Origin: Pseudomonadota bacterium
Lineage (GTDB): Bacteria; Myxococcota_A; UBA796; SXON01
Assembly: GCA_039800105.1 (NCBI GenBank)
Contig: JBDLRI010000025.1
Coordinates: 2,902 to 66,901, forward strand
Direction of reading: 5' to 3'
DNA: 64,000 nt
Position 1 is the first letter of the stretch, and every line of letters begins with the position of its first letter. This document shows, piece after piece, positions 1,211 to 56,553 of the stretch. The notes beneath the pieces were generated by a model that was not told the DNA's origin, did not search any database, and saw only the letters and a program-made list of their open reading frames with translations. The translations under genes were made by a program, and so were the position numbers.

Positions 1211-2277
1211 CCGCCGCACTGGCACTGTGGTTCCTCGCCTGCGCGGGGTCTGCGGGGCCTGCTTCCGGGGCGGAGGGGGTCCCCCCCTCCGCAACGCCTC
1301 CCCCCGCGCCGGGGAAGCCGCCGACGGTGACGATGCAGGCCGACCTGCACCTGGACACCCCGACCCAGCTGCATCGTCGCAACGTCGGCCTCGACGCGAC
1401 GGGCCTGGAGGCCGGCCTCGCGCAGCTGCGGGCCGGCGGCACCAACCTCGCCGTCATGGCGCTCTGGCCCCCGCGGAGGACGGACGGGGAGGCCCATGTC
1501 GACGCGCTCCTCACGCGCATGGAGGCCGAGGACGCGCGCCTGGACGACGTCGTGCTCGTGCGTTCCCCCGACGAGGCGCGGTCCGCCGCCGCAGCCGGCC
1601 GCGTCGGCATCGTGTACGCGCTCGAGGGCACGCACGGCATCGACCGGAGCGGCATCCCCGGGCTGGAGAGGCTGCATGCGCGCGGGTTGGCGCTGCTCGG
1701 CCTGACCTGGACCTTCGACACACGCTTCGCCGGGTCGTCGGGCGGGAAGGGCACCGGCCTCACCGCCGACGGCCGCGCGCTGGTGGACGCGGCCAACCGG
1801 TTGGGCGTGCTCCTCGACGTGAGTCACGCCTCGCGCGCCACCACCCTCGAGGTGTGCGCGCGCTCCCGCGCGCCGGTGGTCGCCTCGCACTCCGACGCCC
1901 ATGTCCTCACGGCGCACCCCCGCAACCTCGAGGACGACGAGATCCGCGCCATCGCCGCCACCGGCGGGGTGATCGGCCTGAACCTCCATCGCCCGTTCCT
2001 CGGCGGGACCGGCGACCTCGCACGGGCCGCGGAACACGCCACGCACCTCAAGCGCGTCGGTGGCGCCGGCGTGGTCGCGCTCGGAACCGATTTCGACGGG
2101 CTCATCGTGCCGCCGCGTGACCTCCCGGACTCCGGCGGCATCGCCGCGCTGTGGCCGTTGCTCACGGCGCGCGGCTGGTCCGCCGCCGAAATCGAAGGGG
2201 TGCGCGGCGCGAACTTCCTCCGTGCATGGCAGGCCGCGCTGGCGACCGCCGGCACCCGCGCGTCCGGCACCCCGTAG
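1207..2277 (+). CDS. Membrane dipeptidase (peptidase M19 family)
   Basis: Distal part of ORF 19..2277. M19 pattern: DLHLDTP, ALEGTHGI, LGLTWTFDTRF, LLDVSHAS, VVASHSDA, VIGLNLH, ALGTDFDG. GTG 1207 overlaps the aspS stop (GTGA) and gives a hydrophobic N-terminus (ALALWFLAC). The alternative ATG 1333 would leave repeat copy 1265-1305 intergenic. Confidence 0.85.
   Translation: MTAALALWFLACAGSAGPASGAEGVPPSATPPPAPGKPPTVTMQADLHLDTPTQLHRRNVGLDATGLEAGLAQLRAGGTNLAVMALWPPRRTDGEAHVDALLTRMEAEDARLDDVVLVRSPDEARSAAAAGRVGIVYALEGTHGIDRSGIPGLERLHARGLALLGLTWTFDTRFAGSSGGKGTGLTADGRALVDAANRLGVLLDVSHASRATTLEVCARSRAPVVASHSDAHVLTAHPRNLEDDEIRAIAATGGVIGLNLHRPFLGGTGDLARAAEHATHLKRVGGAGVVALGTDFDGLIVPPRDLPDSGGIAALWPLLTARGWSAAEIEGVRGANFLRAWQAALATAGTRASGTP
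1265..1305 (-). repeat. GC-hairpin repeat copy (orientation B on the + strand)
   Basis: ccggggcggagggggtccccccctccgcaacgcctcccccc. Matches the family consensus. Lies after the aspS stop, in the 5' region of the dipeptidase ORF. Confidence 0.85.
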
Positions 2278-5472: not shown

Positions 5473-5527
5473 GGCACCTCCGCGCCGGCGACCTATGCCA
5501 CCCTGCGCCGTCTGCAACCATCCAGCT

Positions 5528-5562
5528 CCTGGGGCGGGGGCTGCCGCCCCCGCAACGCCCCC
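5528..5562 (-). repeat. GC-hairpin repeat copy
   Basis: cctggggcgggggctgccgcccccgcaacgccccc. Intergenic between the AAA/TPR gene and the discoidin/NHL gene. Confidence 0.85.
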
Positions 5563-5572
5563 GCCGGCGTGC

Positions 5573-8685: not shown

Positions 8686-9635
8686 GCCTCCCGGATGCTG
8701 GGGCGGAGGGGGTCGGCCACCCCCTCCGCAACGCCTCCCCCGCGGCGACGGTCGAGGCGCTGCGCGCGCGCATCGAGCGTGCCGTCGTCGGCAAGCGGCA
8801 GGTGGTCGATCTCGCCCTGACCTGCGTGCTCGCCGGCGGGCACCTGCTGCTCGAGGACGTGCCGGGCGTCGGGAAGACCACGCTCGCCGTGGCCCTCGCG
8901 CGCGCGACGGGCGGCAGCTTCCGGCGCGTCCAGTGCACGGCGGATCTACTGCCCTCCGACGTCACGGGGGGGCTGATCCTCGACGGCGCGGGCAGCCTGC
9001 GCTTCCGCCCGGGCCCCCTCTTCGCGAACGTCGTCCTCGCCGACGAGATCAACCGCGCCACGCCCCGCACGCAGTCCGCGCTCCTGGAGGCCATGAACGA
9101 GGCGCAGGTCAGCGTCGACGGCGAGAGCCACCCGCTGCCCTCCCCCTTCCTCGTCGTCGCGACCCAGAACCCGCTCGACGTGCACGGCACCTTCCCGCTG
9201 CCGGACGCGCAGCTGGACCGGTTCCTCGTGCGCACGTCGGTGGGGTATCCGCCCCGCGACGCCGAGCGCGCCATCCTGCGCGGCACCGCGGACGGCAGCA
9301 CCATCGAGCCGGTGGTGCCCGAGGCGCTCGCCGCGCTTCGGGCCGCCGTCCGCGCCGTCACCGTGCACCCCGACCTGGAGGACTGGGTCCTCGACCTGGT
9401 GGCGGCGTCGCGGAGCACGGGAGCGTTCGCGCGCGGTGTCAGCCCCCGCGGCGCGCAGGCGCTGGTGGCCGCGGCGCGCGCCCACGCGGTGCTGCACGGG
9501 CGCGCGTGGGTCAGCCCCGAGGATCTCCGCGCCCTCGCCGTGCCGGTTCTCGCGCACCGCGTGCTCGTACGGGACGACTCCGACCCCGCCGCAGCGGTGC
9601 GGGCGCTCGCGGACTCGCTGCCCCCCGCCGCATGA
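8682..9635 (+). CDS. MoxR-family AAA+ ATPase
   Basis: Distal part of ORF 8253..9635. Walker A LLEDVPGVGKTTLA, Walker B VVLADEINRA, ATQNPLDVHGTFPLPDAQLDRF. GTG 8682 overlaps the upstream stop. Repeat copy 8698-8741 lies in the first 20 codons, so the true start may be further downstream. Confidence 0.9.
   Translation: MSLPDAGAEGVGHPLRNASPAATVEALRARIERAVVGKRQVVDLALTCVLAGGHLLLEDVPGVGKTTLAVALARATGGSFRRVQCTADLLPSDVTGGLILDGAGSLRFRPGPLFANVVLADEINRATPRTQSALLEAMNEAQVSVDGESHPLPSPFLVVATQNPLDVHGTFPLPDAQLDRFLVRTSVGYPPRDAERAILRGTADGSTIEPVVPEALAALRAAVRAVTVHPDLEDWVLDLVAASRSTGAFARGVSPRGAQALVAAARAHAVLHGRAWVSPEDLRALAVPVLAHRVLVRDDSDPAAAVRALADSLPPAA
8698..8741 (-). repeat. GC-hairpin repeat copy
   Basis: ctggggcggagggggtcggccaccccctccgcaacgcctccccc. 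Lies at the lipoprotein/moxR junction. Confidence 0.85.
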
Positions 9636-10552: not shown

Positions 10553-12531
10553 CCCCCGCGGGGGAGGCGTTGCGGTGGGGGCAGCCGCCCCCTCCGCCCC
10601 AGCATCGACGCGGGTTCGATCCGCTGGCCGTCGTGATGCTCGCAGCCCTCGGAACCCTGTCGCTCGGCGGCGGCGTGTTCACCGTCGTGGCCGGCCTGGC
10701 CACGCTCGGATGCCTGTGGCCGCGGGTCGCTCCGGTCCCCCGACGGGAGGACTGGAACCCGGTCCACGCGGGGGTGCTCGTGCTCGCGATCGGGGTGGCG
10801 TTCGCCACGGAGGTCGTCGCGGGGCTCGCCGCCCTCGCCGCGTGGCTCCTCGTGCAGCAGCGATGGGCGCGGGGCCCCGACGCGGGCCGCAACGTGCTTC
10901 TGCTCGCCACGCTCGTGCTGCTCGTCGGCTCGCTGCGGGCGGACCACCCGGTCCTGGGCGTGTTGTTCCTGTCCTTCGCGGGGGCGCTCCCCCTGGCGCT
11001 GCTGGCGCTGTTGCCGTGGGGCCCCGATCCCGGACCCGGTCGCCCGGCGCGCGCCGCCCTCGCCGGCGGCACGATGCTCGCCACGGCGGTCCTGTTCGCG
11101 ACCATGCCGCGCCTGGAGGGCGGCCTCTTCGGCACGGAACCGGTGACGCAGGGGCGTTTCCCGACCGACATGGAGCCCGGCTCCGGCGCACTCACCAGCG
11201 ATGACCTCGCGCAGGTCATGCGGGTCCGCGTCACGACACCGGACGGCGTCCCGATCCCCGGCCCGGTGTACGTGCGCGCCCGCGTGCTGGAGCAGTTCGA
11301 CGGCAGGCGATGGACCGCCGGGACCCCGCCGGAGCCGATCCCGCCGCTTCGGCCGAACGTGCGCGCCGAGGTGGAGCTCGACGCCGAGCCGGGCATGCAG
11401 CTCTACGGCGTCGGGGAGATCCTGCGGATCGACGGGGCCCCCGGCGTGCACCGCGTCGCGGAGGGGGTGTTCCAGCACCGCGCTCCCGGGCAGCCCCTCG
11501 CGTACGTTGCCTGGGGACACCGCGCCGAGGACGGGACGCCGCTCTCCACGCCGGAGGAGCGCTGGGTGGCGCTGCCGCGCGACCTGGACCCTCGCATCGG
11601 CGCGCTGGCCTGGTCGGTGGCCCGCGACGCCGCACCGGCGTCGGTCGTCGAGGCGCTGCACGCGCTGCTGATGCGGGACTACCGCTATGGCCGGGAGCCC
11701 GAACCGAGCACGCCCGACCCGAGCGCGGCGTTCCTGTTCGCCCGAAGGACCGGCAACTGCGAGCACTTCGCGAGCGCCCTCGCCCTCCTGCTGCGGGCCC
11801 GGGGCATCCCCGCACGCGTGGCGACGGGCTTCTACTCGGAGGAGACCGACGCGGAGGGCCGCGCCGTCATCCGGAGGGGACACGCGCACGCCTGGACCGA
11901 GGTACGAACGCTGGACGGGTGGCGCACGCTGGACGCGACCCCGCCGGGCGGTCTGCCGACCCCCGAGAGCGCCGGCCTCCGCGCGCGCGTCGCCACGCTC
12001 GTCGGCGCGTGGTACCGCGTGATCGTCGGGTACGACATGGAGGCCCAGTTCGCCGCGTACGGCCTGCTCGGGCGCCCGCTCGTCGGGGCCGGCGCGGGCG
12101 GTGCCGCCCCCTTCCGCGCCGGCATCGTCGGCATGCTCGCGACGATCGCGGCCCTGACGGTGGGACTGGGCGCCCTGCGGCTGGGCGTGGCGGCATGGTC
12201 CGGCGCCGGGCGCGTTCCCGACGATCCGATGCGGGCGGCCGCGCGCACGGCCCGGGAGGTGGTGGCGCGGGCGGGCCACCCGCTCCCGGAGCACCTCCCG
12301 CTGCGCGAGGCCGCGGCGTGGCTGGCGGCACGGGCGGGCACCCCGGCCGGCGCCGCCTTCGCCGCGTTTGCCGATGCCTGGTACGCCGCACGGTACGGCG
12401 GAGACACGGCCGCCGCCGCCGGGCTCGCAGACCGGCTCGACGCGCTGCGCCGCACGATGCGCGCAAGAACGAAGACGCCGACCCGGCAGGGTCGGCGCAG
12501 GTGGTGGGCGATACTGGATTTGAACCAGTGA
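10549..12531 (+). CDS. Transglutaminase-like membrane protein (TgpA-like)
   Basis: Distal part of ORF 9436..12531. GTG 10549 overlaps the DUF58 stop (GTGA). Multi-TM N-terminal region and a transglutaminase core RTGNCEHFASALALLLRARGIPARVATGF...HAWTEV...DATP. Repeat copy 10560-10602 follows the candidate start. The 3' end overlaps tRNA-Val in antisense. Confidence 0.85.
   Translation: MTPAGEALRWGQPPPPPQHRRGFDPLAVVMLAALGTLSLGGGVFTVVAGLATLGCLWPRVAPVPRREDWNPVHAGVLVLAIGVAFATEVVAGLAALAAWLLVQQRWARGPDAGRNVLLLATLVLLVGSLRADHPVLGVLFLSFAGALPLALLALLPWGPDPGPGRPARAALAGGTMLATAVLFATMPRLEGGLFGTEPVTQGRFPTDMEPGSGALTSDDLAQVMRVRVTTPDGVPIPGPVYVRARVLEQFDGRRWTAGTPPEPIPPLRPNVRAEVELDAEPGMQLYGVGEILRIDGAPGVHRVAEGVFQHRAPGQPLAYVAWGHRAEDGTPLSTPEERWVALPRDLDPRIGALAWSVARDAAPASVVEALHALLMRDYRYGREPEPSTPDPSAAFLFARRTGNCEHFASALALLLRARGIPARVATGFYSEETDAEGRAVIRRGHAHAWTEVRTLDGWRTLDATPPGGLPTPESAGLRARVATLVGAWYRVIVGYDMEAQFAAYGLLGRPLVGAGAGGAAPFRAGIVGMLATIAALTVGLGALRLGVAAWSGAGRVPDDPMRAAARTAREVVARAGHPLPEHLPLREAAAWLAARAGTPAGAAFAAFADAWYAARYGGDTAAAAGLADRLDALRRTMRARTKTPTRQGRRRWWAILDLNQ
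10560..10602 (+). repeat. GC-hairpin repeat copy (orientation A)
   Basis: gggggaggcgttgcggtgggggcagccgccccctccgccccag. Lies at the DUF58/transglutaminase junction. Confidence 0.85.
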
Positions 12532-17641: not shown

Positions 17642-19018
17642 TCAGCGCGCGGGTCGGCGACGGCGACGCAGGGACGCCATCCCCGCGAGGAAGAAGATCC
17701 CGGGCGCCCCGGCCACCGCGCAGCCGCCCGTCTTCGGCGATGCGGTCGCCGACGTGACGGGGTCCCCGGCACAGGCCTCCGCGAGCTCCGCGGGACCGAG
17801 GCAGGTCCGCACGCGGGTCGAGGCCTCCGCGCGCACGGGGTTCACGCCGACCAGCACGTAGCTGCCGGCCGCCAACTCCCCCAGCGCGCGCGGCGCTGCC
17901 GTTCCGGCGAAGGTGTCCAGCGGCGCCTGCAGTCGACCGGCCCCATCCAGCGGATGGAGCGAGAACACGAGGTCGGGCGCGTCCGTGCCGGTCGCGAACC
18001 ATGCGGCCCCGCCGGGATGTTCCAACCCGTAATAGGTGGCGGCGAGCGGGTAGTAGCGGTTCGTGTCGTCGATCGACGCGCCGCGGGCGGCCAGCGGCGG
18101 CGGGGTGAGCTGCGCCGCGAACGGGTATCCGGGCTCCGCGCCGGCGCGCAGGCCGGTGGCGGCGTTCCGGCGCGCGAAGTCCGCGAAGTCCGCATCCAGC
18201 GCGCCGCCCGCCTCCTCCACCCGCCGCCCCACGTCCCCGAGCGCGTCGCCGTCGGAGGAGGCGGAGTCCTCCAGGAGGTCGACGAGCACGTCCGTGCCGT
18301 ACCGATCGGCCAGGAACCACCACCAGAGGGCGGTGCCGTAGGCGAACGCCGGCACCGGTCCCGTCGGCGGGCGGTCCAGCGATCGGCCCGCGTCCTGCAG
18401 ATACGCGCCGCAGAAGCGCAGGAAGTCGCGGCTTCCGGGATCGTAGAGGTCCTCCGCCCACGTGGCGGTCCCCTCCGACACCCACAGCTCCTGATCGGCG
18501 TCGTAGGCGGCCTGCACGGCGTGGAACAGCTCGTGCGACACGAGCACCGTGACCGCGGTGTCGATGCTGGCGTAGCCGTACCCGACGAAGTCGTTCTCCA
18601 GGAGCACGTGGCCCGCGCACGCGCGCGGGGCCGCGTCACAGGCCTCGGCCACGTACATGCCGTCGGCGTCCCCGCCGAAATCGACCAGGTAGACGTCCAG
18701 GGCGTCCGAGCCTCCCGCGCCCGAATCCGGGAGCGGCGCGCGGAACCCGACGCCGGCGTAGACGTCGAGCACGTCCTCGGTGCGGGCGGCCACGGCCTCG
18801 ACGAAGTCGGGGATCCCGTCCTGATCCGCGTCGGCACGCAGGGTGGCGTTCGGGCCGGCCTCGCTGTACCACACGCGCGCCCGCCCCTCGGCGCCGTCGA
18901 AGGACACGACGCGGTCTTCCGCGGAGAAGGCCCGCAGCCCGGACCCGTCCGTGGGTCGCCCCCACGCCGCACCGAGGAGCAGCAGCGCGATCACGCGCGC
19001 CGCCGGCGCGCGCACCGC
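17642..19018 (-). CDS. Secreted HExxH metalloprotease with MYXO-CTERM tail
   Basis: Distal part of ORF 17642..19846. Zinc motif VLVSHELFHAVQ. C-terminal tail GGCAVAGAPGIFFLAGMASLRRRRRPAR. GTG 19018 gives the signal peptide MRAPAARVIALLLLGAAWG; the alternative GTG 18994 overlaps the upstream stop (GTGA). Confidence 0.75.
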   Translation of the reverse strand, partial: AVRAPAARVIALLLLGAAWGRPTDGSGLRAFSAEDRVVSFDGAEGRARVWYSEAGPNATLRADADQDGIPDFVEAVAARTEDVLDVYAGVGFRAPLPDSGAGGSDALDVYLVDFGGDADGMYVAEACDAAPRACAGHVLLENDFVGYGYASIDTAVTVLVSHELFHAVQAAYDADQELWVSEGTATWAEDLYDPGSRDFLRFCGAYLQDAGRSLDRPPTGPVPAFAYGTALWWWFLADRYGTDVLVDLLEDSASSDGDALGDVGRRVEEAGGALDADFADFARRNAATGLRAGAEPGYPFAAQLTPPPLAARGASIDDTNRYYPLAATYYGLEHPGGAAWFATGTDAPDLVFSLHPLDGAGRLQAPLDTFAGTAAPRALGELAAGSYVLVGVNPVRAEASTRVRTCLGPAELAEACAGDPVTSATASPKTGGCAVAGAPGIFFLAGMASLRRRRRPAR

Positions 19019-20439
19019 ACCGCGAGCAGCGCGACCACCGCGGGGGAGGCGTTGCGGAGGGGGTGTCCCCCTCCGCCCCAGTCGGCCGAGGTGGCGCAGG
19101 CGCACCCCGCGGCGGCCTCCGCATCGGGCGGGTACAGCGTCTCGAGGATGCCGACGGGGTCGATGACGCCCCACCCGTAGACGTCGTTGCGACCGTCGGC
19201 GTCGGGAGGCACGCTCGCCGACGGCGCGGCGGTGCCCTCGATCAGCGCGCGGAGGTCGGCGGCGGTCAGCGTCGGATCCTGCGCGAGCACCCACCCGGCC
19301 AGGCCGCTCACCACGGGAGCCGCGGCGCTGGTGCCGCCGAAGGTCGTGGTCACGCCGCCGCCCGGCACCACCGACACCGTGGCGCTCGGCGCCGCGACGT
19401 CCACCGCGGGGCCGGCGTTGGTGTAGTTCGTCGGGTAACCGTAGCTGTCGGTGGCGGACACGCACAGCACGTCCTCCAGCGCCGCCAGTTCGATGGGGCG
19501 GATGCGCCGATCGTCGTTGCCGGCCGCGAAGACCACGAGCGCGCCGAGGCCGCCGCGCCCCTCGATGCTGGCCCGCGCGATGACCTCGGCCAGCGGCTCC
19601 GGCACCGGGATGGATTCGGTGAACCCCCAGGAATTGTTGATGACGCCGGCGCCCGCGGCGATCGCGTGCTCGAAGGCCCGCACGTCGGCGGACAGCGGCG
19701 TGTCGCCGTCCTCGCCGAGCAGCCGGATCGGGACGAGCGTGCACGCCGGACACATGCCCACGATGCCCACCTCGTTGCCGCCGCGTGCCAGCGCAGCCCC
19801 GGACACCGCCGTGCCGTGGAGATCGCAGGCCAGCTCGGGGCCACACGGCGCGGCCGGCGAGGGATCCTCATCGTCGTCGATCGCGTCGTACGGCGCGGTG
19901 ACCGCGTCCGCGAGATCGGGGTGCCCGATGTCGATGGCGGAATCGATGACGGCCACGCGCACGTCGGGATCGCCCGGCGACACGGCCCACAGGCGATCCA
20001 TCGACAGGCGGTCCACCCACCACTGGCTTCCGCGCGAGGGGTCGTCGTACACCCCCTCGCCGCCGGCCGGCGCCTGCGGCAGCAGCACGTCCGGGAACAC
20101 CCCGTGGATCCCGGCGCGCGCGGCGAGCGCCTGTGCCGTGACGATGGGCGACGCGGACGGCAACCGCCACGAACGGCCCCCGAGAAAAACCGCGCCCGGG
20201 GGCGCCGGCATGCCGGGCGCGACGCGGAACACGACCCCGTCGGACACGGCGAGGTCCACGACACGGCCCTCGAGGTGGGCGAAGCGGTAGACCGGGCGTC
20301 CGGCCCGGACCCCGACGCGCTCCGGCGGCGATGCCGGGTCGAAGCGCAGGGGCGCGGCGTCCGCCGGGACCCACGCGAGGAGGGCGAGCATTGCGACGAC
20401 CATGGGCCGCAGGATATCGGCGCGCCGCGAGGTCCGCAT
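18991..20439 (-). CDS. Subtilisin-like serine protease (S8) with MYXO-CTERM tail
   Basis: Distal part of ORF 18991..20640. Catalytic triad contexts VAVIDSAID, DLHGTAVSG and GGTSAAAPVVSG. ATG 20439 gives the signal peptide MRTSRRADILRPMVVAMLALLAWVPADA; ATG 20403 is the alternative. The tail GCACATSADWGGGGHPLRNASPAVVALLAVRCARRRRA contains repeat copy 19042-19081. Confidence 0.85.
   Translation of the reverse strand: MRTSRRADILRPMVVAMLALLAWVPADAAPLRFDPASPPERVGVRAGRPVYRFAHLEGRVVDLAVSDGVVFRVAPGMPAPPGAVFLGGRSWRLPSASPIVTAQALAARAGIHGVFPDVLLPQAPAGGEGVYDDPSRGSQWWVDRLSMDRLWAVSPGDPDVRVAVIDSAIDIGHPDLADAVTAPYDAIDDDEDPSPAAPCGPELACDLHGTAVSGAALARGGNEVGIVGMCPACTLVPIRLLGEDGDTPLSADVRAFEHAIAAGAGVINNSWGFTESIPVPEPLAEVIARASIEGRGGLGALVVFAAGNDDRRIRPIELAALEDVLCVSATDSYGYPTNYTNAGPAVDVAAPSATVSVVPGGGVTTTFGGTSAAAPVVSGLAGWVLAQDPTLTAADLRALIEGTAAPSASVPPDADGRNDVYGWGVIDPVGILETLYPPDAEAAAGCACATSADWGGGGHPLRNASPAVVALLAVRCARRRRA
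19042..19081 (+). repeat. GC-hairpin repeat copy
   Basis: gggggaggcgttgcggagggggtgtccccctccgccccag. Identical to the copy at 45717. Lies inside the MYXO-CTERM tail of the S8 protease. Confidence 0.9.
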
Positions 20440-21172
20440 GCCCACCCTTCCCGTCCTCTCCGCGCTGCTCACGCTCGCTGCCTGCGGTGCCCCCGCGGAG
20501 GAGAAGGCGCTCGATCCGGTCTGCACCGACCCGGAGCCGCCGGCGTGCATCGACGCGATGATCCAGGACCTCTCGCTGCATGACGACAAGGTGAGCGACG
20601 CCGAGGTGTCCACCACCCGCGACGGCGACGACTTCGTCACCTTCGTGGACGCCTCCGCGGGGGGCTACAGCCGCGCGTCGGCCCATCCCTGGACCTACGT
20701 GCGGTTCACGGAGCTCGGTGCCGAGCGCGTGAACGTCGACGACGAGACCGCCCTGACCGACATGACCTGGCACATGGCGTTCCGGCGCTTCATCATCCGG
20801 CTCAACAGCGGCGACAGCGGTCCGTCCTGCGTCGGCGCATCCGCGCTCATGGGGCGGCGCTACGACGCCGTGGACGCCGTGCCCGAGGGCGTGACCTTCC
20901 TCGAGGACGACAGCTACACGGACGACTGCAGCCTCATCAACGACTCGTCCGGCCTGCCGGGCAGCCCGCAGGTGGCGATGGGCCCGTGGTGGGACTACCC
21001 CGGCTGCGTGGACACCACCGGGACGCCCTTCGTCGTCCAGCTCGAGGACGGGCGGGTCCTGAAGCTCGTCGTCGAGCGGTACTACGACGGCGACGGCGAC
21101 GACGAGTGCGACGACTCGCAGGCGACGCAGGAGGACGGCGGCTTCCTCACGCTCCGCTGGCGCGCGCTCTAG
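20402..21172 (+). CDS. HmuY-like lipoprotein
   Basis: ORF 20402..21172. Lipobox LTLAAC. The segment TWHMAFRRFIIRLNSGDSGPSCVGA resembles the HmuY-family W-D-x-A-F-R...N-S-G motif. ATG 20402 or ATG 20438 is the start. Confidence 0.6.
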   Translation: MGRRISARREVRMPTLPVLSALLTLAACGAPAEEKALDPVCTDPEPPACIDAMIQDLSLHDDKVSDAEVSTTRDGDDFVTFVDASAGGYSRASAHPWTYVRFTELGAERVNVDDETALTDMTWHMAFRRFIIRLNSGDSGPSCVGASALMGRRYDAVDAVPEGVTFLEDDSYTDDCSLINDSSGLPGSPQVAMGPWWDYPGCVDTTGTPFVVQLEDGRVLKLVVERYYDGDGDDECDDSQATQEDGGFLTLRWRAL

Positions 21173-22779
21173 CCTACGCAGGCAGGCCGACGTCGGCGCA
21201 TCACGGCGAGTGCGCACCCCACGAGGATCCCGCCCCAGCGGCCCTGCGCCGGGACACTCCCGCACCCTCCGGTCCCGGCTGGCACCTCCCCGGCCCTCGC
21301 GATCCCGGTCCCGGCGACGCGCGCGTCCGCCGGCGGCAGGCGCGCGCGGTCCGCGAGCCAGTCCCGCACCGCGTCGGGGTCCCGGAAACGCCCGGTGGCC
21401 GAGATCCACAGCGCGGCCAGGCCCGCGACGTGCGGCGCCGCCGCGCTGGTTCCCTGGAACGCGCGCGCGCCGAACGCATCCGTCGACACGGCGCTTGGTG
21501 CCAGCAGCTCCGGCTTGGCGCGCCCGTCGTCGGTCGGCCCGCGGCTGCTGTACGGAAACGGCGCGTCGGACGGGACGTCCCACGCCCCCACCGTCACGCC
21601 GTTTCGCAGGTCCGCCGGCAGCGTGAGGCTGCGCGCGCCGGTGGCCGCCTCGGCCGCCATGCCGCCCGGGGCGTGCAGGGTCGCGGTCAGGCCGGCCGGC
21701 ACCTGGCCGTCCGCCGCCTCGACGCGCGCGCGGACCCACGGGGTGCAGGCAACGGCGTTCACGGACTCGAACGGGTCCCCGCGGCCGTCCTGGCTCTCCG
21801 TGCCGCGCCCGCAGGGGGACCCGTCCGCGTTGACGAGCACGAGGTCGAGGTCGGTCGTCGCGCCACCGAACGGCTCCGACCACCGCAGGGTCGCCCGCGC
21901 CCAGCCGTCGGGTGCCCACACCCACGCGCCCGACCGGTCGCCGATCGGCACGACACCGTCGTCGTCGGGCGTTCCGAGGACGCCCACACGGGTGCGGAGC
22001 GCCTCGTTGCCCGCCGCCGCGACATAGAGCACCCCGTGCGCCGCGACCGCATCCGCCAGGCGCGTCATCGGGCTGGTGGCGTCGGCGTGCCAGACGTTGT
22101 CGAAGCCGATCGAGGCGTTGATCACGTCGGCACCGGCCGCGACAAGCGACTCCAGCGCCCCGGCCAGCTCCACGTCGGTCTCGACGGTCACGAGCACCAG
22201 CTCGGCCTCCGGAGCGATGTCGTGGACGACCTCCGCCACCGCCGTCCCGTGCGCGGATCGCCCGGGCGCGCCGAAGCGGAAGTCCGTGCGCACGCGCCCG
22301 GGGAGTTCGGCGCCGAGCGCGTCCTCCCACCCGGCGAAGCCGACGTCGACGATGCCGACGACGACGCCCGCGCCGTCGAGCCCGGCTTCGTGCCACGGCT
22401 CCACGCCGAGGGCGTCGACCCCCTCGCTGCGCACGCCCTTCGGCACGGCCCGGCGGGGCGGACGCACGCGCGCCACGCCCGGCACCCCGGCCAGCCCGCG
22501 CAGGTCCACGGGCCCCGCGACCTGCACGGCGTCGGGGGACACCGCGCGGACCGACAGGCCCGACGCCACGAGGCGCGCGGCCAGGGCCGGGCCCGACACG
22601 CCCGCCTCCGGATGCACCGCCACGTCCGCCCCGCCCCAGGCCTCCCCCGCGTCCCGCAGCGCGGCGTCGACGCGCGCCCACGCGGGATCGGCCGGCCGGG
22701 GCGCCGCCGCGGCCATCGCCAGCCACGCCAGGATCACGCCACCCCCGCGCCGCGCGATACGGACGCCCCGTGGACCCAC
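21169..22779 (-). CDS. Subtilisin-like serine protease (S8) with MYXO-CTERM tail
   Basis: ORF 21169..22779, GTG start. VVVGIVDVGF, SAHGTAVAEV, FQGTSAAAPHVAGLAAL. Tail GTGGCGSVPAQGRWGGILVGCALAVMRRRRP. Its stop overlaps the stop of the convergent gene (CTAG). Confidence 0.85.
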   Translation of the reverse strand: MGPRGVRIARRGGGVILAWLAMAAAAPRPADPAWARVDAALRDAGEAWGGADVAVHPEAGVSGPALAARLVASGLSVRAVSPDAVQVAGPVDLRGLAGVPGVARVRPPRRAVPKGVRSEGVDALGVEPWHEAGLDGAGVVVGIVDVGFAGWEDALGAELPGRVRTDFRFGAPGRSAHGTAVAEVVHDIAPEAELVLVTVETDVELAGALESLVAAGADVINASIGFDNVWHADATSPMTRLADAVAAHGVLYVAAAGNEALRTRVGVLGTPDDDGVVPIGDRSGAWVWAPDGWARATLRWSEPFGGATTDLDLVLVNADGSPCGRGTESQDGRGDPFESVNAVACTPWVRARVEAADGQVPAGLTATLHAPGGMAAEAATGARSLTLPADLRNGVTVGAWDVPSDAPFPYSSRGPTDDGRAKPELLAPSAVSTDAFGARAFQGTSAAAPHVAGLAALWISATGRFRDPDAVRDWLADRARLPPADARVAGTGIARAGEVPAGTGGCGSVPAQGRWGGILVGCALAVMRRRRPACVG

Positions 22780-23387
22780 ACACCGACGGCTTCTTCGACC
22801 GGGACGCGCTGGAGGTCGCGCACGACCTCATCGGCTGCGTGCTCACCCGCCACGAAGGCCTTCGCGTGCGCATCACCGAGGCGGAGGCGTACCGCTTCCC
22901 CGGCGACAGCGCCAACCACGCGCGCATGGGACTCACCCCGCGCAACGCGCCGATGTGGGGTCCTTCCGGCCATCTCTACGTCTACCTCTGCTACGGCGTG
23001 CATCCCATGCTCAACCTCGTCACCGGGCCCGGGGGTCACGCCGCGGCCGTGCTCCTGCGCGGTGGCGAGCCGATGCAGGACACGATCATGGGGCGGGGGG
23101 GCGCGCCCCCCCGCAACGCCCCCCGCCTCGACGGGCCCGGAACGCTCGCGCAGGCGCTCGGCGTCACCACGGCCCACACGGGCCTGCGGCTCGACGCCGT
23201 CTTCGCGCTCGACGCCCCCGACCGCCCGGTGACGCGGCTCGCCGGACCGCGCGTGGGAATCGACTACGCGGCCCCGGAACACCGCGACGCCCCCTGGCGC
23301 GTGGCATGCGCGTCCAGCCTCCACGTCGGACACCGGCGCACGCTCGCGCCGATCCCGGCTACCAGCTCGGCGCCGGGTTCGCGCTGA
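22770..23387 (+). CDS. mpg: DNA-3-methyladenine glycosylase (Mpg/AAG family)
   Basis: ORF 22770..23387, GTG start. FFDRDALEVAHDLIGCVL, ITEAEAY, DSANHA, HLYVYLCYGVHPMLNLV, GPGTLAQALGV, GPRVGIDYA. Repeat copy 23088-23125 lies in frame between conserved blocks. Confidence 0.88.
   Translation: MDPHTDGFFDRDALEVAHDLIGCVLTRHEGLRVRITEAEAYRFPGDSANHARMGLTPRNAPMWGPSGHLYVYLCYGVHPMLNLVTGPGGHAAAVLLRGGEPMQDTIMGRGGAPPRNAPRLDGPGTLAQALGVTTAHTGLRLDAVFALDAPDRPVTRLAGPRVGIDYAAPEHRDAPWRVACASSLHVGHRRTLAPIPATSSAPGSR
23088..23125 (-). repeat. GC-hairpin repeat copy
   Basis: atggggcggggggggcgcgcccccccgcaacgcccccc, in frame inside mpg. Confidence 0.85.
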
Positions 23388-24264: not shown

Positions 24265-25695
24265 ATGTCCGTCCCCCGCCCCGATCCCCGCTACCTCGCG
24301 CTCGGCGAGGGCTACGCCGACGCGGTCGCGCCCGCGCGGTTCCCCGCGCACCGCCTGCGTTGGCGCAACGACCGCGCCGCCGCCGCCGTCGGCCTCACGG
24401 GCCTCGACGACGACGCCTGGATCGACCGCTTCGCGCGCTTCGCGCCGCTGCCGGACAACCTGCCGGAGCCGCTCGCGCTGCGCTACCACGGCCACCAGTT
24501 CCGCCACTACAACCCACACCTCGGCGACGGGCGCGGCTTTCTCTACGCCCAGTTCCGGGACGACCGCGGGCGACTCCTGGACCTGGGCACGAAGGGCAGC
24601 GGCACGACCCCATGGAGCCGCGGCGGCGACGGACGGCTGACGCTCAAGGGCGCCGTGCGCGAGCTGCTCGCGAGCGAGATGCTCGAGGCGCTCGGGGTGG
24701 ACACCTGCCGCACGCTCAGCATCGTGGAGACCGGAGAGTCGCTGGATCGCCACGACGAGCCGTCCCCGACGCGCGCCGCGGTGCTGGTGCGGCTCTCGCA
24801 CAGCCACGTGCGCGTCGGCACCTTCCAGCGGCTGGCGGCGCACGGCGACCGGCAACGCATGGCGCGGCTCGTAGCGTACGTCGCGGAGCACCTGCTGCCG
24901 CACGCGACGCCCACGCCCCGGGGCATCCTCGCGGCGAGCTGCGACCGCGCCGCCTGGACCTGCGGCGCCTGGATGGCTGCCGGATTCGTGCACGGCGTGC
25001 TCAACACCGACAACCAGAACCTGACCGGCGAGAGCTTCGACTACGGCCCGTGGCGCTTCACGCCCACCTACGACCCGTCCTTCGTCGCGGCGTACTTCGA
25101 CCACGAGGGGCTCTACGCCTTCGGGCGGCAGGCGGAGGCCGTGCACTGGAACCTGCGCGCGCTGGCGCAGTCGCTCGCGTTGCTCGGGGAGCCGCTCGAC
25201 GGCGCGCTGGACGGCTTCGCGGCCGCCTTCCACGCCGGCCTGCGCACCACCTTCCTGCGACGGCTCGGGGTCGCCTCCGCCGGCGAGGCCGGTGACACCA
25301 CGCTCTGCATGCTCGGGCTGGAAGCGCTTGCGCGCACGCGGGCGCCGCTGGTCGCGTTCTTCGACGCCTGGCACGGCGGCGCCGACGCGCGGCCCGGGGA
25401 TCATCCCGACGCCGCGACGTGGGCCTCGCCGGCGTTCGACCTCTTCCGCGAAGTCCATTCCGAGTATGTTTCCGTGGCAACGCCCCCTGGCACGTCGCCG
25501 GACCTGCACATCGACACGGTGGAGGCCCTGTGGGCGCCGATCGCGGCCCACGACGACTGGGCGCCGCTCCACGCCCACGTCGCGGGGATCCGCGCCCTCG
25601 GCGCGCGGCTCGGCCCGGCCACCCCGTACGCGGGGCTGGACGAATCCGTCACGGGGGGCGTTGCGGGGGGATGTCCCCCCGCCCCAGGTGAATAG
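24265..25695 (+). CDS. selO: Protein adenylyltransferase SelO (YdiU/UPF0061)
   Basis: ORF 24265..25695. LALRYHGHQFRHYNPHLGDGRGFLY, DLGTKGSGTTPWSRGGDGRLTLKGAVRELLASE, HSHVRVGTFQ, GFVHGVLNTDN, FDYGPW. The last 14 codons derive from repeat copy 25653-25688. Confidence 0.92.
   Translation: MSVPRPDPRYLALGEGYADAVAPARFPAHRLRWRNDRAAAAVGLTGLDDDAWIDRFARFAPLPDNLPEPLALRYHGHQFRHYNPHLGDGRGFLYAQFRDDRGRLLDLGTKGSGTTPWSRGGDGRLTLKGAVRELLASEMLEALGVDTCRTLSIVETGESLDRHDEPSPTRAAVLVRLSHSHVRVGTFQRLAAHGDRQRMARLVAYVAEHLLPHATPTPRGILAASCDRAAWTCGAWMAAGFVHGVLNTDNQNLTGESFDYGPWRFTPTYDPSFVAAYFDHEGLYAFGRQAEAVHWNLRALAQSLALLGEPLDGALDGFAAAFHAGLRTTFLRRLGVASAGEAGDTTLCMLGLEALARTRAPLVAFFDAWHGGADARPGDHPDAATWASPAFDLFREVHSEYVSVATPPGTSPDLHIDTVEALWAPIAAHDDWAPLHAHVAGIRALGARLGPATPYAGLDESVTGGVAGGCPPAPGE
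25653..25688 (+). repeat. GC-hairpin repeat copy
   Basis: ggggggcgttgcggggggatgtccccccgccccagg. Forms the last codons of selO. Confidence 0.85.
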
Positions 25696-28367: not shown

Positions 28368-28409
28368 ATGGGGGCGGAGGGGGGCAGCCCCCTCCGCAAC
28401 GCCTCCCCC
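28368..28409 (-). repeat. GC-hairpin repeat copy between convergent genes
   Basis: atgggggcggaggggggcagccccctccgcaacgcctccccc. Fills the 54-nt gap between the OYE and hsp20 stops. Possible bidirectional terminator (inference only). Confidence 0.85.
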
Positions 28410-32793: not shown

Positions 32794-34293
32794 TCAGCCG
32801 CCCAGTCGCGCGCGCAAGGCGTGGGCGCCCGCGACCACCACGCGCTCGCCGTCGGAGACCCCGTCCAGCACGCGCACACGCGCCCCGTCCGAGGCCCCGA
32901 CGCGCACCTCGCGCAGCGCGAAGCCCTCGGGCCCGGTCTTCACCAGCACCGTGGGGACGCCGTGCCGGGGCACCACCGCGTCCACCGGGACCGCGAGGCC
33001 CTCGTCCGGCTCGCCCGACGCGATGGCGACCCGCGCGGCCGCGCCCGGCGGCAGGGGCGCGTCGCACGCCACGGTCACGGGGACGCGTCCGTTGGCGGGA
33101 TCGACCTCGTGGCCGGCGTCGAGCACCACGGCGGCGAGGACCGGCGCGTCCTCCCGCGCCACGCGGCGGACCTGCGCCGTCGCGCCGGCCCGGATCCCCG
33201 CCGCGTCACGCTCCGGAACGTGCACGCGCACCCAGCTCGCCGCCGTGCCCACGACGCGCGCGAGGGCGTCCCCGGCGCGGACGACCTCGCCGGGCTGCAC
33301 CAGCAAGGCCGCGAGCGTCCCGCCGAAGGGCACGCGCACCGGCACGCCCGAGGACGCGTCGCGCCATGCCCGCGCGGATGCGTCCGCCGTCTTCGCCGCG
33401 GCGTCGCGCCGCGCGCGCTCGCGTCCCGACACCACGCCCGTGGCACGCGCGGCACGCGCGGCGTCCTCCAGCGCCACCTCGCGCTCCACGGCGGCGCCGG
33501 TGCGCCGGGACGCCAGCTCCGCGCGCTCCAGCGGGCCGACCAGCTCGCGGACGCGGGCGAACACCTCCCCGGCACGAAGGCGCGTGCCGGGCTGGGGACG
33601 CCCACCGACCGGCTGGAACACGCCATCCGACGGCGCCCGCAGCGTCGCCGCGCCCCCCGGCGCCGGAACGACGTGCCCGACCCCCTCGAGGACCGGCGCG
33701 ACGCGCACGGCCTCCGCGCGCGCCGTGCGAAGTCCGACCAGCAGCTGGGTCTCGAGCGGCATCGCCAGCACGCCCTCCACCCGACGCGCGACCGCGGTCC
33801 GCGCCGCCCCGACCCTCACGCCGTCGACGCCGACCAGCCCCACGTGCTCCGCCTCGCGCACCGCCAGCGCCCCGGCCCAGATCCCGGCGGGCAGGGGCTC
33901 CGCGACACGCCAGGCACCGCCGGCCTCGGCCTGCAGCTCACCCTCCACCACGGAACCCTCCGCCGACCGCCACCAGGCACGTACGGTGCCCGTCTCCACG
34001 GGCGACGTCGTGTCCGCACGGACGATCCACAGGCGCGGGCGGCCCCCGTCGACACTGGCCAGGACGGCCTCGTAGCCACCCTGCGGCGCCGATTCGACGT
34101 TTGCCTGGGGCAGGGGGGGCTCCGCCCCCCCCGCAACGCCCCCCCCGTCGTGGTCCCCGTCGCCGTGGTCCTCGTCCGCGTGGTCATCCCCGCCGTGGTC
34201 ATCCCCGCCGTGGGCGAGGGCGCGCCCGACTCCCAGCACGAGCAGCAGCCCCAGCCCGGCCACGCGCATCCGACGCCCTGTTCCCATCGTCAT
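32794..34293 (-). CDS. RND efflux periplasmic adaptor (CusB/CzcB-like) with an N-terminal His/Asp-rich tract
   Basis: ORF 32794..34338. ATG 34293 overlaps the upstream stop (ATGA); ATG 34287 is the alternative. Signal/TM MRVAGLGLLLVLGVG, then HGGDDHGGDDHADEDHGDGDHD. MFP-type hairpin, lipoyl and beta-barrel regions (RAGEVFARV, PFGGTLAALLVQPGEVVRAGDALARV). Confidence 0.85.
   Translation of the reverse strand: MTMGTGRRMRVAGLGLLLVLGVGRALAHGGDDHGGDDHADEDHGDGDHDGGGVAGGAEPPLPQANVESAPQGGYEAVLASVDGGRPRLWIVRADTTSPVETGTVRAWWRSAEGSVVEGELQAEAGGAWRVAEPLPAGIWAGALAVREAEHVGLVGVDGVRVGAARTAVARRVEGVLAMPLETQLLVGLRTARAEAVRVAPVLEGVGHVVPAPGGAATLRAPSDGVFQPVGGRPQPGTRLRAGEVFARVRELVGPLERAELASRRTGAAVEREVALEDAARAARATGVVSGRERARRDAAAKTADASARAWRDASSGVPVRVPFGGTLAALLVQPGEVVRAGDALARVVGTAASWVRVHVPERDAAGIRAGATAQVRRVAREDAPVLAAVVLDAGHEVDPANGRVPVTVACDAPLPPGAAARVAIASGEPDEGLAVPVDAVVPRHGVPTVLVKTGPEGFALREVRVGASDGARVRVLDGVSDGERVVVAGAHALRARLGG
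34104..34146 (-). repeat. GC-hairpin repeat copy
   Basis: cctggggcagggggggctccgccccccccgcaacgcccccccc, in frame inside the RND adaptor just after the His/Asp tract. Confidence 0.85.
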
Positions 34294-35477
34294 TCTCCTC
34301 CGCCGGGCCCGCCCGGCCACGCCCCCGCCGCGGCCCACTGCGCCGCGCGGGCGCGCACGCGCATGGCACGCAGCGCATCCACCGTCTCGAGGGCGTCCTG
34401 CACCGCGCGACGCTGCACCAGGTACTCGGCGACGGACAGCTCACCGGCGGAAAGGCCGGCGTCCACCGCGCGCAGCGCCTCGGCGAGCCGCTCCGCATCG
34501 ATGTCCGCGAGCAGGGCCTCGGCGTCCGTCCCCTCGCGTTCCGCGCGACGCAGCTCCGCGTCGGCCGCCGCCGTGGTCTCGACGCGCGCGCGCGCGGCCG
34601 CGTCGGCGCGCGCCACCGCGGCCCCGGCACGGGCGGACGCGCCGCCGCCGAGGGGCAGCTCGAGGTTCACCACCGCGCCGACGGGCCCCTCCGCGCTTCG
34701 GCCCACGCCGAGGGAGATCTCCGAGGTTCCGAGCACCCCCGGCGTGGCCCGCGCCACCTGCGCGGCGGCCTCCGCATCGGTGCGGGCGACCCGCGCCGCC
34801 AGGGCTTCCGCGGCGGCGGGCGGGGGCGGAAGGTCCCACGGGCCGTCGGCGCCGTCCACCGGCGCGCCGCCGAGCAGCGCGCCCAGCCGCGCGGCGGCAT
34901 CCGCCTGCGCGCGCGCCGCGTCGCGGGCGTCGCGGGCGTTCGTGGTGGCGACCGCCCCGAGCAGCGCAGCCTCCACCTCGGACAGCTCGCCGTCCGGAGA
35001 GCGCGGGGGCGCGACCCGCGCGACCCGCGCCGCGCGCGCCTGCGCGCACGCCAGGTCGACCCAGGCATCCACCACGTCCACGAGCAGCCCCCCGCGCGCG
35101 GCGGCGGCGCGGGCGTCGGCCGCGGCGGCGCGCGCGCGCACCGCGGCCCGACGTGCCCCGAGGCCCGGCGCGGTCGGCAGGGCGATCGCCACGGACGAGA
35201 GGTCCGGGTCGTGGCCCGCGCGCAGCGCCGCAGGCACCGCGGCGTCGGCGCGCGCCTCCGCACGCGCGGCGAGGTCCGACGCGGCGATCGCCGCCAGCCG
35301 CGGGGACTCCGTGCGCGCCCGGGCCAGCGTGTCCTGCAACGTCAACGCGGACGCCGGTGCGCTCACGAGACCCCACGCGAGCGCCACGGCCCAGCGCAGG
35401 TGGCGGGGGGGCGTTGCGGGGGGGGCGCAGCTCCCCCCGCCCCAGGAACCATGCGAGGAGGACGGACACGCGCGCAT
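34290..35477 (-). CDS. Outer-membrane efflux factor (TolC/CzcC-like)
   Basis: Distal 395 codons of ORF 34290..36770, ATG 35477. Ala-rich coiled-coil/OMF-like repeats (LTLQDTLARARTESPRLAAIAASDLAARAE, AEYLVQRRAVQDALETVDAL). Family call rests mainly on position upstream of the adaptor and pump. Repeat copy 35405-35447 lies in the leader region. Confidence 0.7.
   Translation of the reverse strand: MRACPSSSHGSWGGGSCAPPATPPRHLRWAVALAWGLVSAPASALTLQDTLARARTESPRLAAIAASDLAARAEARADAAVPAALRAGHDPDLSSVAIALPTAPGLGARRAAVRARAAAADARAAAARGGLLVDVVDAWVDLACAQARAARVARVAPPRSPDGELSEVEAALLGAVATTNARDARDAARAQADAAARLGALLGGAPVDGADGPWDLPPPPAAAEALAARVARTDAEAAAQVARATPGVLGTSEISLGVGRSAEGPVGAVVNLELPLGGGASARAGAAVARADAAARARVETTAAADAELRRAEREGTDAEALLADIDAERLAEALRAVDAGLSAGELSVAEYLVQRRAVQDALETVDALRAMRVRARAAQWAAAGAWPGGPGGGE
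35405..35447 (+). repeat. GC-hairpin repeat copy
   Basis: gggggggcgttgcggggggggcgcagctccccccgccccagg, in the leader region of the outer-membrane factor ORF. Confidence 0.85.
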
Positions 35478-51116: not shown

Positions 51117-52438
51117 TGGCCGGGCGTCGGCCGCCGCCGGGTCCCGACGCGCCGGGCGCGTGGCGACACGCCCGTCCGACGGGGGTCCAGGGGGCGGCGC
51201 CCCCTGGCGGGGCGTTGCGGGGCGGCGCCCCGCCCCAGGGAAAGCCAGCCTCCGCGCGGGACGACGGCAGGCTGCACGTGAACGCCTACAGCGAGGGGTG
51301 GCTGCGGAAGGGCTTTCCGTGGGTCTACCCCGCGGAGATCACGGCGGGCAGCGTGCGTCCGGGCCGTGCGACGCAGCTGGTGGCGCCCGGCGGCGAGGTG
51401 CTGGGCACGGCCATCGCCGACGACGGCTGGATCGCGGCGCGGCGCTTCCGCGACGATGCCGGCGACATCGACGGGGCGCTGCTGCGCGCGCGGGTGGAGG
51501 CGGCGCTCCGTCGTCGTGCGGGGCTGATCCCGCCCGACACCACCGCCTGGCGACTGGTGCATGCCGAGAACGACGACCTGCCCGGCATCCGCGTCGACGT
51601 GTGGGGCGCGCATGCGGTCGTGTCCCTCGACTCCCCCTCCCTCACGGGGCTGCTCGCGCCGCTTTGCGACGCCGTCGAGGCGGTGATCGGCCCGCGGGAG
51701 GGCATCCACCTGGCGCACCGGCCCGACCCGCGGGAGAAAGAGCGGCGGTCCTGGCCCCGCGAACCGGGCCTGCTGCGCGGGTCCGATCCCGGCGAGATCG
51801 AGGTCCTCGAGCGGGGCGTGCGGTTCCGGGTGCGCCCCGGCGATGGCCAGAAGGACGTCGGGCTCTACCCGGACATGCGCGACAACCGCGCGTGGCTGGA
51901 CCCCCACTGGCGGGGCCGCTCGCTCCTGAACCTGTTCGCGCACACCTGCGCCTTCAGCGTGTTCGCGGCGCGGGCCGGCGCCGCCTCCACCGTGTCGGTG
52001 GACCTGTCGGCGGCCTACCTCGAGCGCGGTGCCGCCAACTTCCGCCACAACGGCCTGCCCGTGCCGGAGCTGCTCGCGGAGGACTGCTTCCGCGCGCTGG
52101 ACCGCTTCCGCCGGCAGGGCCGGACCTTCGACGTGGTGCTGCTCGACCCGCCGGGACACAGCCACGGACCCGAGGGCACGTGGTCCGGGGAGCGCGACTA
52201 CGCCCGCCTCGTGCTCGGCGCGCTGCGGGTCCTGGCCCCGGGCGGGTGGCTCGTGGCGGCAAGCAACCTCGGCACCGTGAGCCCCCACCGCTTCCAGGGC
52301 ACGCTGCTCGACGGCGCCCGCCGCGCGGGACGCACGCTGCGCCTGCTGCACGACGGCGACGCCGCGCCCGACTTTCCCGCGGCGCTGGCGTTCCCCGAGG
52401 GCCGGTACCTGAAGTTCATGATTTGCGCGGTGGACTAG
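51116..52438 (+). CDS. Class I SAM-dependent rRNA methyltransferase (RlmI/RlmK-like)
   Basis: ORF 51116..52438. KGFPWVYPAEI (PUA-like start), WRLVHAENDDLPGIRVD, LNLFAHTCAFSVFAA, VVLLDPP, LVAASN. ATG 51116 shares one nt with the upstream stop. The alternative GTG 51278 would leave repeat 51187-51240 intergenic. Confidence 0.82.
   Translation: MAGRRPPPGPDAPGAWRHARPTGVQGAAPPGGALRGGAPPQGKPASARDDGRLHVNAYSEGWLRKGFPWVYPAEITAGSVRPGRATQLVAPGGEVLGTAIADDGWIAARRFRDDAGDIDGALLRARVEAALRRRAGLIPPDTTAWRLVHAENDDLPGIRVDVWGAHAVVSLDSPSLTGLLAPLCDAVEAVIGPREGIHLAHRPDPREKERRSWPREPGLLRGSDPGEIEVLERGVRFRVRPGDGQKDVGLYPDMRDNRAWLDPHWRGRSLLNLFAHTCAFSVFAARAGAASTVSVDLSAAYLERGAANFRHNGLPVPELLAEDCFRALDRFRRQGRTFDVVLLDPPGHSHGPEGTWSGERDYARLVLGALRVLAPGGWLVAASNLGTVSPHRFQGTLLDGARRAGRTLRLLHDGDAAPDFPAALAFPEGRYLKFMICAVD
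51187..51240 (+). repeat. Composite GC-hairpin repeat copy
   Basis: The near-palindrome ccagggggcggcgccccctgg is followed by cggggcgttgcggggcggcgccccgccccaggg. The block ggggcggcgcccc occurs twice. Confidence 0.75.
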
Positions 52439-52461
52439 GCGTGCCGCTCCGTGCCACGGCT

Positions 52462-56538: not shown

Positions 56539-56553
56539 CCCACCAAGACCGGC

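Follow-up and report, generated by a model that had tools for sequence, protein, structure and literature searches.

In a 64,000-nt stretch of contig JBDLRI010000025.1 (assembly GCA_039800105.1, positions 2,902 to 66,901 of the forward strand; hereafter, the window), we examined a short GC-rich repeat that lies in the middle of mpg, the gene for the 3-methyladenine (alkyladenine) DNA glycosylase Mpg. The mpg coding sequence (CDS; 22770..23387, plus strand) is intact in the list of open reading frames (ORFs) and encodes 205 amino acids from a GTG start, and its product matches PF02245 (Pur_DNA_glyco) over residues 8–180 (E = 6e-46; 156.5 bits, Pfam cut-off 27). An AlphaFold2 model of the protein has the AAG fold (predicted local distance difference test, pLDDT, of 82.5), and Foldseek matched it to human AAG (3QI5/1F6O/1EWN) with E ~5e-12 and a TM score of 0.71. 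Residues E39, Y41, H50, Y70, Y72, N82, and R97 of the core, which are invariant in 121 aligned sequences, are all kept; the human equivalents E125, Y127, H136, Y159, N169, and R182 were numbered via the alignment and a manual count of the human sequence. Its nearest homologue, P0001, shares 99% identity with it and all others share at most 63%, and an exact-protein look-up returned no match on record. At the 5′ end, the longest ORF calls of mpg and of a divergent subtilase-like gene (21169–22779, minus strand) overlap by 10 nt (22770–22779). The same two genes are called 33 nt apart in a sister strain (L001, JGI 3300043427), which suggests that the subtilase-like gene probably starts further in; the promoter region common to both genes is very short.

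The repeat is a full-length copy of 40 nt that lies mid-CDS in sense orientation. A hairpin repeat had been reported here in the initial annotation, and both a palindrome and a match to the profile hidden Markov model (HMM) of the repeat family bear this out; because the nhmmer match covers all 40 model positions (1–40, E = 3.5e-8), the true bounds are 23086–23125 rather than 23088–23125. From 5′ to 3′, the copy comprises the tag TCATGGG (23086..23092; family consensus TCCTGGG from a position profile of 178 copies), block S1 or purine arm GCGGGGGGG (23093..23101), the loop CGCG (23102..23105), block S2 or pyrimidine arm CCCCCCCGC, which is the Watson-Crick partner of S1 (23106..23114), an invariant AA linker at the centre of the core CCGCAACGCC (23115..23116), and block S3, CGCCCCCC followed by G (23117..23125), the mirror of S2 and parallel complement of S1. 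Positions 23093–23114 form a perfect 22-nt palindrome, GCGGGGGGGCGCGCCCCCCCGC; chance alone would yield 0.04 such matches in the window.

This copy is flanked in a single frame by conserved Mpg blocks (HLYVYLCYGVHPMLNLV...LLRGGEP on the 5′ side, GPGTLAQALGV...GPRVGIDYA on the 3′ side), and third-codon-position G+C (GC3, ~0.9), phase, and strand are unchanged across it on both flanks. The in-frame position between conserved blocks is thus upheld by the ORF list, the PF02245 match, and GC3 periodicity, as is the argument that no choice of start codon can exclude the element. It encodes the peptide MGRGGAPPRNAPR (23088..23126, plus strand; codons 107–119, M107–R119), which is predicted as coil. 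The accompanying claim that the element lacks stop codons in all six frames holds for 23088–23125 and fails once the 5′ tag is included, as TCA at 23086–23088 is a stop in one antisense frame.

Native segment and strain variation in Mpg

Comparison with 119 orthologues places the copy where native residues would otherwise stand. The stretch from E100 to G122 has a modal length of 22 residues in these orthologues (range 16–32) and spans 21 in the window, so there is no net gain in length, and the element represents a replacement of native residues and not a 13-residue addition, as had been supposed. Same-length segments in orthologues, which the initial annotation itself had named as evidence against an addition, are therefore what we found, including one in a syntenic Mpg orthologue (L232, JAUXQH010000081) whose metagenome-assembled genome (MAG; JAUXQH01) carries the repeat family elsewhere. 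The orthologue consensus at the site reads ...G-L-x-x-x-R-A-R-R-G-x-x-x-G-P-x-L-L-(D/T)-G-P-G-K, and the window protein ...Q-D-T-I-M-G-R-G-G-A-P-P-R-N-A-P-R-L-D-G-P-G-T. The segment replaced amounts to 12–14 native codons that specify the second half of a short helix and the following loop (R-A-R-R-G-x-x-x-G-P-x-L), and the native DNA of orthologues is rich in G here (CGG GCG CGG CGC ...).

The structural setting of this segment differs between the proteins compared. In the model of the window Mpg, residues 107–119 are coil with pLDDT from below 50 (residues 107–111) up to 64, and the helix is truncated; the AlphaFold model of the orthologue P0003 has a helix (104–110) and an ordered loop in the same segment, with pLDDT of 97–98. 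The segment aligns with residues 200–214 of human AAG, among which residues 203–207 are without electron density in PDB entry 3QI5. The proposal that the element sits in a surface loop is consequently borne out by the disordered human loop and contradicted by the ordered helix of the bacterial orthologue.

The sister strain offers a close comparison, as L001 is 99.73% identical to the window over 7.3 kb (18438–25729). A single indel separates the two: L001 lacks 15 nt of the mpg copy, comprising most of S2, the AA linker, and the first part of S3, and its reading frame is preserved. Slippage between both CGCCCCCC direct repeats would remove 13 nt; that the actual loss is 15 nt, and keeps the frame, is mildly suggestive of selection. 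The five single-nucleotide polymorphisms (SNPs) are also unevenly placed: two fall inside another family copy (19043–19081) and two more are found 18 and 27 nt 3′ of the mpg copy, where both are non-synonymous (window versus L001, plus strand: 23143 C/A, T125 versus K; 23152 A/G, Q128 versus R). Copies with 30-nt margins make up ~4% of the aligned sequence and hold four of the five SNPs (binomial p ~1e-5). The mpg copy is therefore a local hot spot of DNA change, with a 15-nt deletion and clustered SNPs between 99.7% identical strains, although sequencing or assembly error in G/C runs may lie behind some of these differences. Changes at the copies fit the instability reported around triplex-motif repeats of E. 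coli.

A dispersed three-block repeat family

The core CCGCAACGCC occurs exactly 16 times in the window, 15 times with the same wider layout, and a profile HMM trained on 180 parsed members yields 15 window copies. Related contigs from metagenomes and MAGs contain ~180 further copies. The family is present in MAGs labelled Myxococcota, Polyangiaceae, or “Pseudomonadota,” as well as in many metagenome contigs. Its layout is 5′-TCCTGGG / GCGG(A/G)G4-7 / loop 3-7 / C4-7(T/C)CCGC / AA / CGCC(T/C)C4-7 / G, with a unit length of 32–49 nt and ~90% G+C. Position profiles set the 5′ edge ~7 nt ahead of the stem (TCCTGGG) and the 3′ edge at the G after the last C-run; over 178 copies, the tag profile is T 63%, C 73%, C 75%, T 96%, and then GGG, the last five tag positions being partly set by the search patterns.

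The third block covaries with the stem. The choice of A or G in S1 is concordant with T or C in S3 in 175 of 179 copies (A/T/T versus G/C/C), the length of the S1 G-run tracks that of the S3 C-run (Spearman 0.70, G subtype), and in 117 of 180 copies the mirroring by S3 extends over the whole stem. The mirrored fraction across the 22 distinct S1 types amounts to 0.88, compared with 0.59 in permutations (0 of 5000 as high), and the rare types GCGGGAGGGGC/CGCCCTCCCCG and GCGGAAGGGGGG/CGCCTTCCCCCG obey the same rule. An extension of the rule beyond the purine tract was rejected, as C or T after the S1 G-run is not tracked by S3. Three consecutive blocks of which the third mirrors its neighbour are what the ITxF criteria describe (stems of 6–15 nt with at most one mismatch, loops of 1–6 nt), and the arrangement is, judged from sequence, that of an intrastrand triplex motif, with a top strand predicted to be of class III (purine-pyrimidine-Hoogsteen) and a bottom strand of class I (reverse-Hoogsteen-purine-pyrimidine) under the definitions of Holder et al. 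2015. An alternative antiparallel S1:S3 hairpin explains the same covariation, because the G-runs are identical when read either way, and RNAfold pairs S1 with S3 in the mpg copy. Folding energies are indistinguishable from those of dinucleotide shuffles (z from -0.6 to -1.7; for the mpg copy, -30 kcal/mol per 56 nt and z = -0.8), so that, together with the RNAfold preference, energy cannot choose between the hairpin, the alternative hairpin, and the triplex. Searches against Rfam at gathering and E ≤ 1 settings gave no match at any repeat copy, and a terminator and promoter scan around mpg found nothing. An intrinsic terminator was likewise discarded, since 22400–23600 holds no terminator-like site and what comes after the element is a C-run and G instead of a U-run.

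The composition of the family bears directly on its fate within genes. At ~90% G+C, stop codons are few, so that copies landing in genes can be read through: 161 of 180 copies (89%) are stop-free in all six frames. Because 61% of composition-matched shuffles are stop-free as well, stop-freeness is for the most part a consequence of base composition, which enables tolerance without being a special adaptation. The Gly/Pro/Ala-rich character of the translations was confirmed (six-frame family average of 25% Gly, 25% Pro, 13% Arg, and 12% Ala).

Judged from GC3 phase and in-frame stops, most copies in the window follow a stop codon by 7–55 nt or sit between convergent genes; three are within the last 13–30 codons of ORFs, one is in an N-terminal linker, and the mpg copy is the sole one deep inside a domain. 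Among the 161 copies with enough flanking sequence, 30 (19%) are mid-CDS by virtue of a stop-free frame and coding periodicity on both sides, although a handful appear by eye to be false positives. These genic copies use all three sense frames and also the antisense orientation. Besides Mpg, eight host proteins were verified: a malonyl-CoA-synthetase-like enzyme, a MoxR ATPase, and a DEAD-box helicase against PDB, and against Pfam a RibD_C protein (copy mid-domain), an MFS transporter (copy in the central loop), and three fusions with the copy in the inter-domain linker (epimerase-cytidylyltransferase, homocysteine methyltransferase-MTHFR, and an FAD-binding/OYE-type oxidoreductase). With nine host proteins checked in this way, the earlier suggestion that family members are often tolerated in genes is sustained. 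The copy in L188 is length-neutral like that in mpg, and at least those in L145, L198, and L119 are net insertions of 17–36 residues. Mid-CDS copies are not enriched for lengths in multiples of three (p = 0.21), so simple insertion of 3n units is not the rule and boundary adjustments must be common. A search for empty sites among 232 loci turned up only divergent pairs (66–76% identity), in which insertion footprints and target-site duplications are unreadable. Pairing is rare among 197 copies, with one inverted pair within 52 nt and six more adjacent pairs 226–900 nt apart, and no gene resembling a RAYT, the IS200/IS605-type Y1 transposase of REPs, was seen between nearby inverted copies in 1.67 Mb of fragments, where the ORFs were read by eye as ordinary housekeeping genes.

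Two of these hosts deserve separate mention. The inter-domain insertion in the DEAD-box helicase of L198 spans 36 residues (~242–284), about twice one copy, and the extra GGGSGGDAARGRPTGSSSG may represent another copy that has decayed. The window counterpart (8933–10552) of the MoxR-type ATPase gene in L145 lacks, at ~76% nucleotide similarity, the copy that interrupts the L145 gene at this linker, so the two lineages differ in its presence.

Three known repeat systems resemble this family, the nearest precedents being RPEs and intragenic REPs. The Rickettsia palindromic elements (RPEs; Ogata et al. 2000, 2002, as relayed in PMC10969869 and PMC3733652) are described there as AT-rich, alpha-proteobacterial elements of ~150 bp with a conserved peptide, and R. 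conorii RPE sequences as ending in a CGTC tag (PMC3733652). Both systems comprise dispersed palindromes in frame in unrelated, apparently functional genes, where they add to a peptide segment or alter it, with a sizeable intragenic fraction. The present family is, in contrast, 32–49 nt long, ~90% G+C, untagged, of seemingly unrelated sequence, and equipped with a third mirror block, and its mpg copy replaces rather than adds; unit length alone rules out membership, and base composition differs too. Intragenic GTAG/CGTC REPs are stem-loops of 20–40 bp found mostly downstream of ORFs or between convergent genes (Di Nocera et al. 2013, PMC3733652), and some lie wholly inside ORFs, notably those of replication and repair genes (uvrA/B, recB), and neutrality within linkers and loops has been proposed for them (PMC3733652). 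Our family shares with REPs the short palindromic unit, the many dispersed copies (15 in 64 kb), and the mostly extragenic location downstream of ORFs, but nearly always occurs as single units rather than head-to-head dimers and has the extra mirrored block. Its consensus, TCCTGGGGCGG...CCGCAACGCC(T/C)CCCCG, contains neither REP tag nor complement. A literature search for REPs in myxobacteria found nothing relevant.

The third system, intrastrand-triplex repeats named BoxC, PIT, or TMECO, occurs in E. coli as well as in other bacteria (Hoyne et al. 2000; Holder et al. 2015, PMC4666352). These are likewise G/C-rich and dispersed, with three consecutive blocks of 8–10 nt (a pyrimidine block, a purine block, and another that can bind as the third strand), short loops, and local instability between strains. 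The block order is opposite, however: purine-pyrimidine-pyrimidine (class III) on the top strand of our family and purine-purine-pyrimidine (class I) on the bottom strand, compared with pyrimidine-purine-purine (class II) in TMECO. The second loop of the family is only AA, or GC-AA-CG with a frayed closing pair, and ~19% of its copies are in genes, whereas TMECO is always intergenic in E. coli K-12. As the TMECO pattern CCCTCNCCC-N3-6-GGGNGAGGG-N3-GGGNGAGGG is not matched and both sequence and block order differ, membership was rejected here as well. The family works like the RPE, REP, and BoxC systems but belongs to no named family.

Origin of the mpg copy and alternative explanations

We hold it likely, with a probability of about 70%, that the mpg copy belongs to a high-copy, non-coding REP/BoxC-like repeat, selfish or neutral, that replaced a helix end and loop and is tolerated as a passenger with no adaptive role. 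One copy came to occupy mpg in the lineage of the window and its sister strain. The replacement may have taken place by insertion and subsequent length-restoring deletions, which is plausible given the fast local indels, or by homology-assisted conversion, the native CGG-GCG-CGG-CGS-GGC Arg/Gly codons resembling the purine arm. The window Mpg probably still folds and works, perhaps less well, given that its core residues are kept, the frame is kept in both strains, and the corresponding human loop is disordered.

Several observations weigh against this account. The Arg pair present in all 119 orthologues is reduced to R109, which is supplied by the repeat's CGG, and its second member has become G110. 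A Gly found in 118 of the 119 two residues upstream of the copy is deleted in the window, and residue 125, K or R in every orthologue, is T in the window and K in L001. Such losses of near-invariant residues, together with the two non-synonymous SNPs in mpg, also fit relaxed constraint. Low pLDDT values in the model of the window protein may in part stem from an alignment in which only two sequences share the segment. The homologue search found no Mpg relatives between 63 and 99% identity, and with such relatives missing the empty site, insertion footprint, and order of events are not observed; the closest other relative (L219, 80% nucleotide identity) ends 360 nt before mpg. In addition, the copy at 19043–19081 is identical at 40 of 40 positions to the orthologous copy in L219 (~1187–1627), while the coding flanks are ~81% identical, which hints, at the level of sequence comparison, at constraint or homogenisation of copies, so that copies may not simply be neutral junk.

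Some of these observations would be expected if mpg were dead or dying, that is, if the copy had wrecked a helix and an Arg pair that the enzyme needs, with the ORF remaining open only because the event is recent and stops are rare at 75% G+C. The lost Gly, second Arg, and K125, the non-synonymous nature of both mpg SNPs relative to L001, and low-confidence structure at residues 107–119 where the orthologue is ordered all point in that direction. We nevertheless regard this as unlikely, as every core residue invariant across the 121 sequences is retained, GC3 stays at ~0.9 in the same frame on both sides, the deletion in L001 is of 15 nt and not 13 nt and preserves the frame, K125 is still present in L001, and the matching loop of human AAG is not required for order in crystals.

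A bolder interpretation sees in the family an undescribed class I/III triplex repeat of an uncultured high-GC Myxococcota-like lineage that spreads or homogenises by homology-assisted conversion at G-rich Arg/Gly codons, overwrites loops without change in length, as in Mpg and the malonyl-CoA-synthetase-like protein, and leaves a hypermutable spot behind in the gene. If true, such a conversion-spread triplex repeat would be a built-in generator of loop variation, beyond a tolerated insertion, but we give the full scenario only a slim chance.

It is also conceivable that the copy is kept in mpg for regulation, in that its hairpin or triplex causes RNA polymerase or ribosome pausing or affects mRNA stability. 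The local pairing potential is strong (-30 kcal/mol for 56 nt), the family prefers sites just after genes, the orthologous copy in L219 is far better conserved than its flanks, and intrastrand triplexes are reported as polymerase blocks in vitro (PMC4666352). This folding energy, though, is like that of dinucleotide shuffles (z = -0.8) and neither a U-run nor a terminator-like site is present, the gene persists in the sister strain despite the loss of S2, the linker, and the first part of S3, and orthologues, including the one from a family-bearing genome, do without the element. PIT/BoxC repeats of E. coli also had no promoter, terminator, or polymerase effects in vivo (PMC4666352). We find a regulatory role very improbable.

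Lastly, a chance resemblance of native Arg/Gly/Pro codons at high G+C, to which the G-rich native orthologue DNA and the likeness of the peptide GRGG to native ARRG might point, is effectively refuted by the 40-position model match, the exact 10-nt core CCGCAACGCC, the mirrored third block, and the 22-nt perfect palindrome, none of which occurs in any orthologue.

On the favoured reading of a tolerated passenger, the locus extends the RPE and intragenic-REP phenomenon to an uncultured, Myxococcota-like genome type of ~74% G+C, and it offers a natural experiment in which one enzyme segment exists in three states (native, full copy, and copy minus 15 nt). It also connects two usually separate literatures, those on translated palindromic repeats and on destabilising, triplex-type BoxC-like repeats, and raises a possible link between triplex-type repeats and coding-sequence variation. 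In practice, annotators and structure predictors should expect repeat-derived patches of 11–16 residues rich in Gly, Pro, Arg, and Ala in proteins of this lineage, and length-neutral replacement of conserved residues, as in Mpg, escapes length-based insertion screens.

Other copies and repeats in the window

The remaining copies in the window are mostly extragenic. On the plus strand, copies follow stop codons by 55 nt (1267..1303), 17 nt (8697..8740), and 28 nt (52461..52504), lie between two minus-strand genes (5527..5563), and are found between convergent genes at 28371..28408 and, as a GGCC-extended subtype, at 59252..59289. Minus-strand copies occur 7 nt after a stop codon (10561..10603) and between two plus-strand genes (56553..56591), and one of a short-stem subtype (51209..51239) either precedes the N-terminus of ORF 51116..52438(+) or lies within it. 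A partial copy at 14527–14567 (TCCTGGGGCGGGGGGCTTTGCCCGCCCCCC...) retains the 5′ tag and hairpin and lacks the GCAACGCC core and third block.

Three minus-strand copies contribute to C-termini. That at 19043..19081 lies in the C-terminal tail of ORF 18991..20640(-) and encodes WGGGGHPLRNASP, after which the ORF continues for 17 amino acids, and that at 45718..45757 lies in the tail of ORF 45668..48295(-) and encodes GAEGDTPSATPPP, after which 15 amino acids follow. The third (25653..25688), read antisense, forms the last 13 residues of the SelO-like ORF 24265..25695(+), which ends in ...GGVAGGCPPAPGE*. In L219, a partial extra core (CCTCCGCAACG) is located just upstream of the copy orthologous to that at 19043..19081.

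A further plus-strand copy (34104..34145) occupies the Asp/His/Gly-rich N-terminal linker of ORF 32794..34338(-), which appears by eye to be membrane-fusion protein-like, and a minus-strand copy (35406..35447) coincides with or precedes the N-terminus of an ORF judged by eye to be TolC-type-like. These two inverted copies are 93% complementary and, within a region of 79% G+C, flank a segment of 1.26 kb, which holds the TolC-type-like ORF and no transposase.

Outside the window, a MAG labelled “uncultured Enterobacteriaceae” (CAYWGD01; loci L004, L011, L014, L015, L019, L024, L031, L032, L064, and L073) has 70–75% G+C and many repeat copies, and its label is almost certainly wrong. Within the window, the sole Rfam match is a tRNA gene (12505–12576, minus strand). 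Two neighbouring plus-strand ORFs are covered by a 300-nt direct repeat of 71% identity (55813–56112 and 57447–57746), and the second of these ORFs contains a tandem array of four 30-nt units, CGGCACCAGCGGCGGCGGCACCGGCACCGG (57986–58102).

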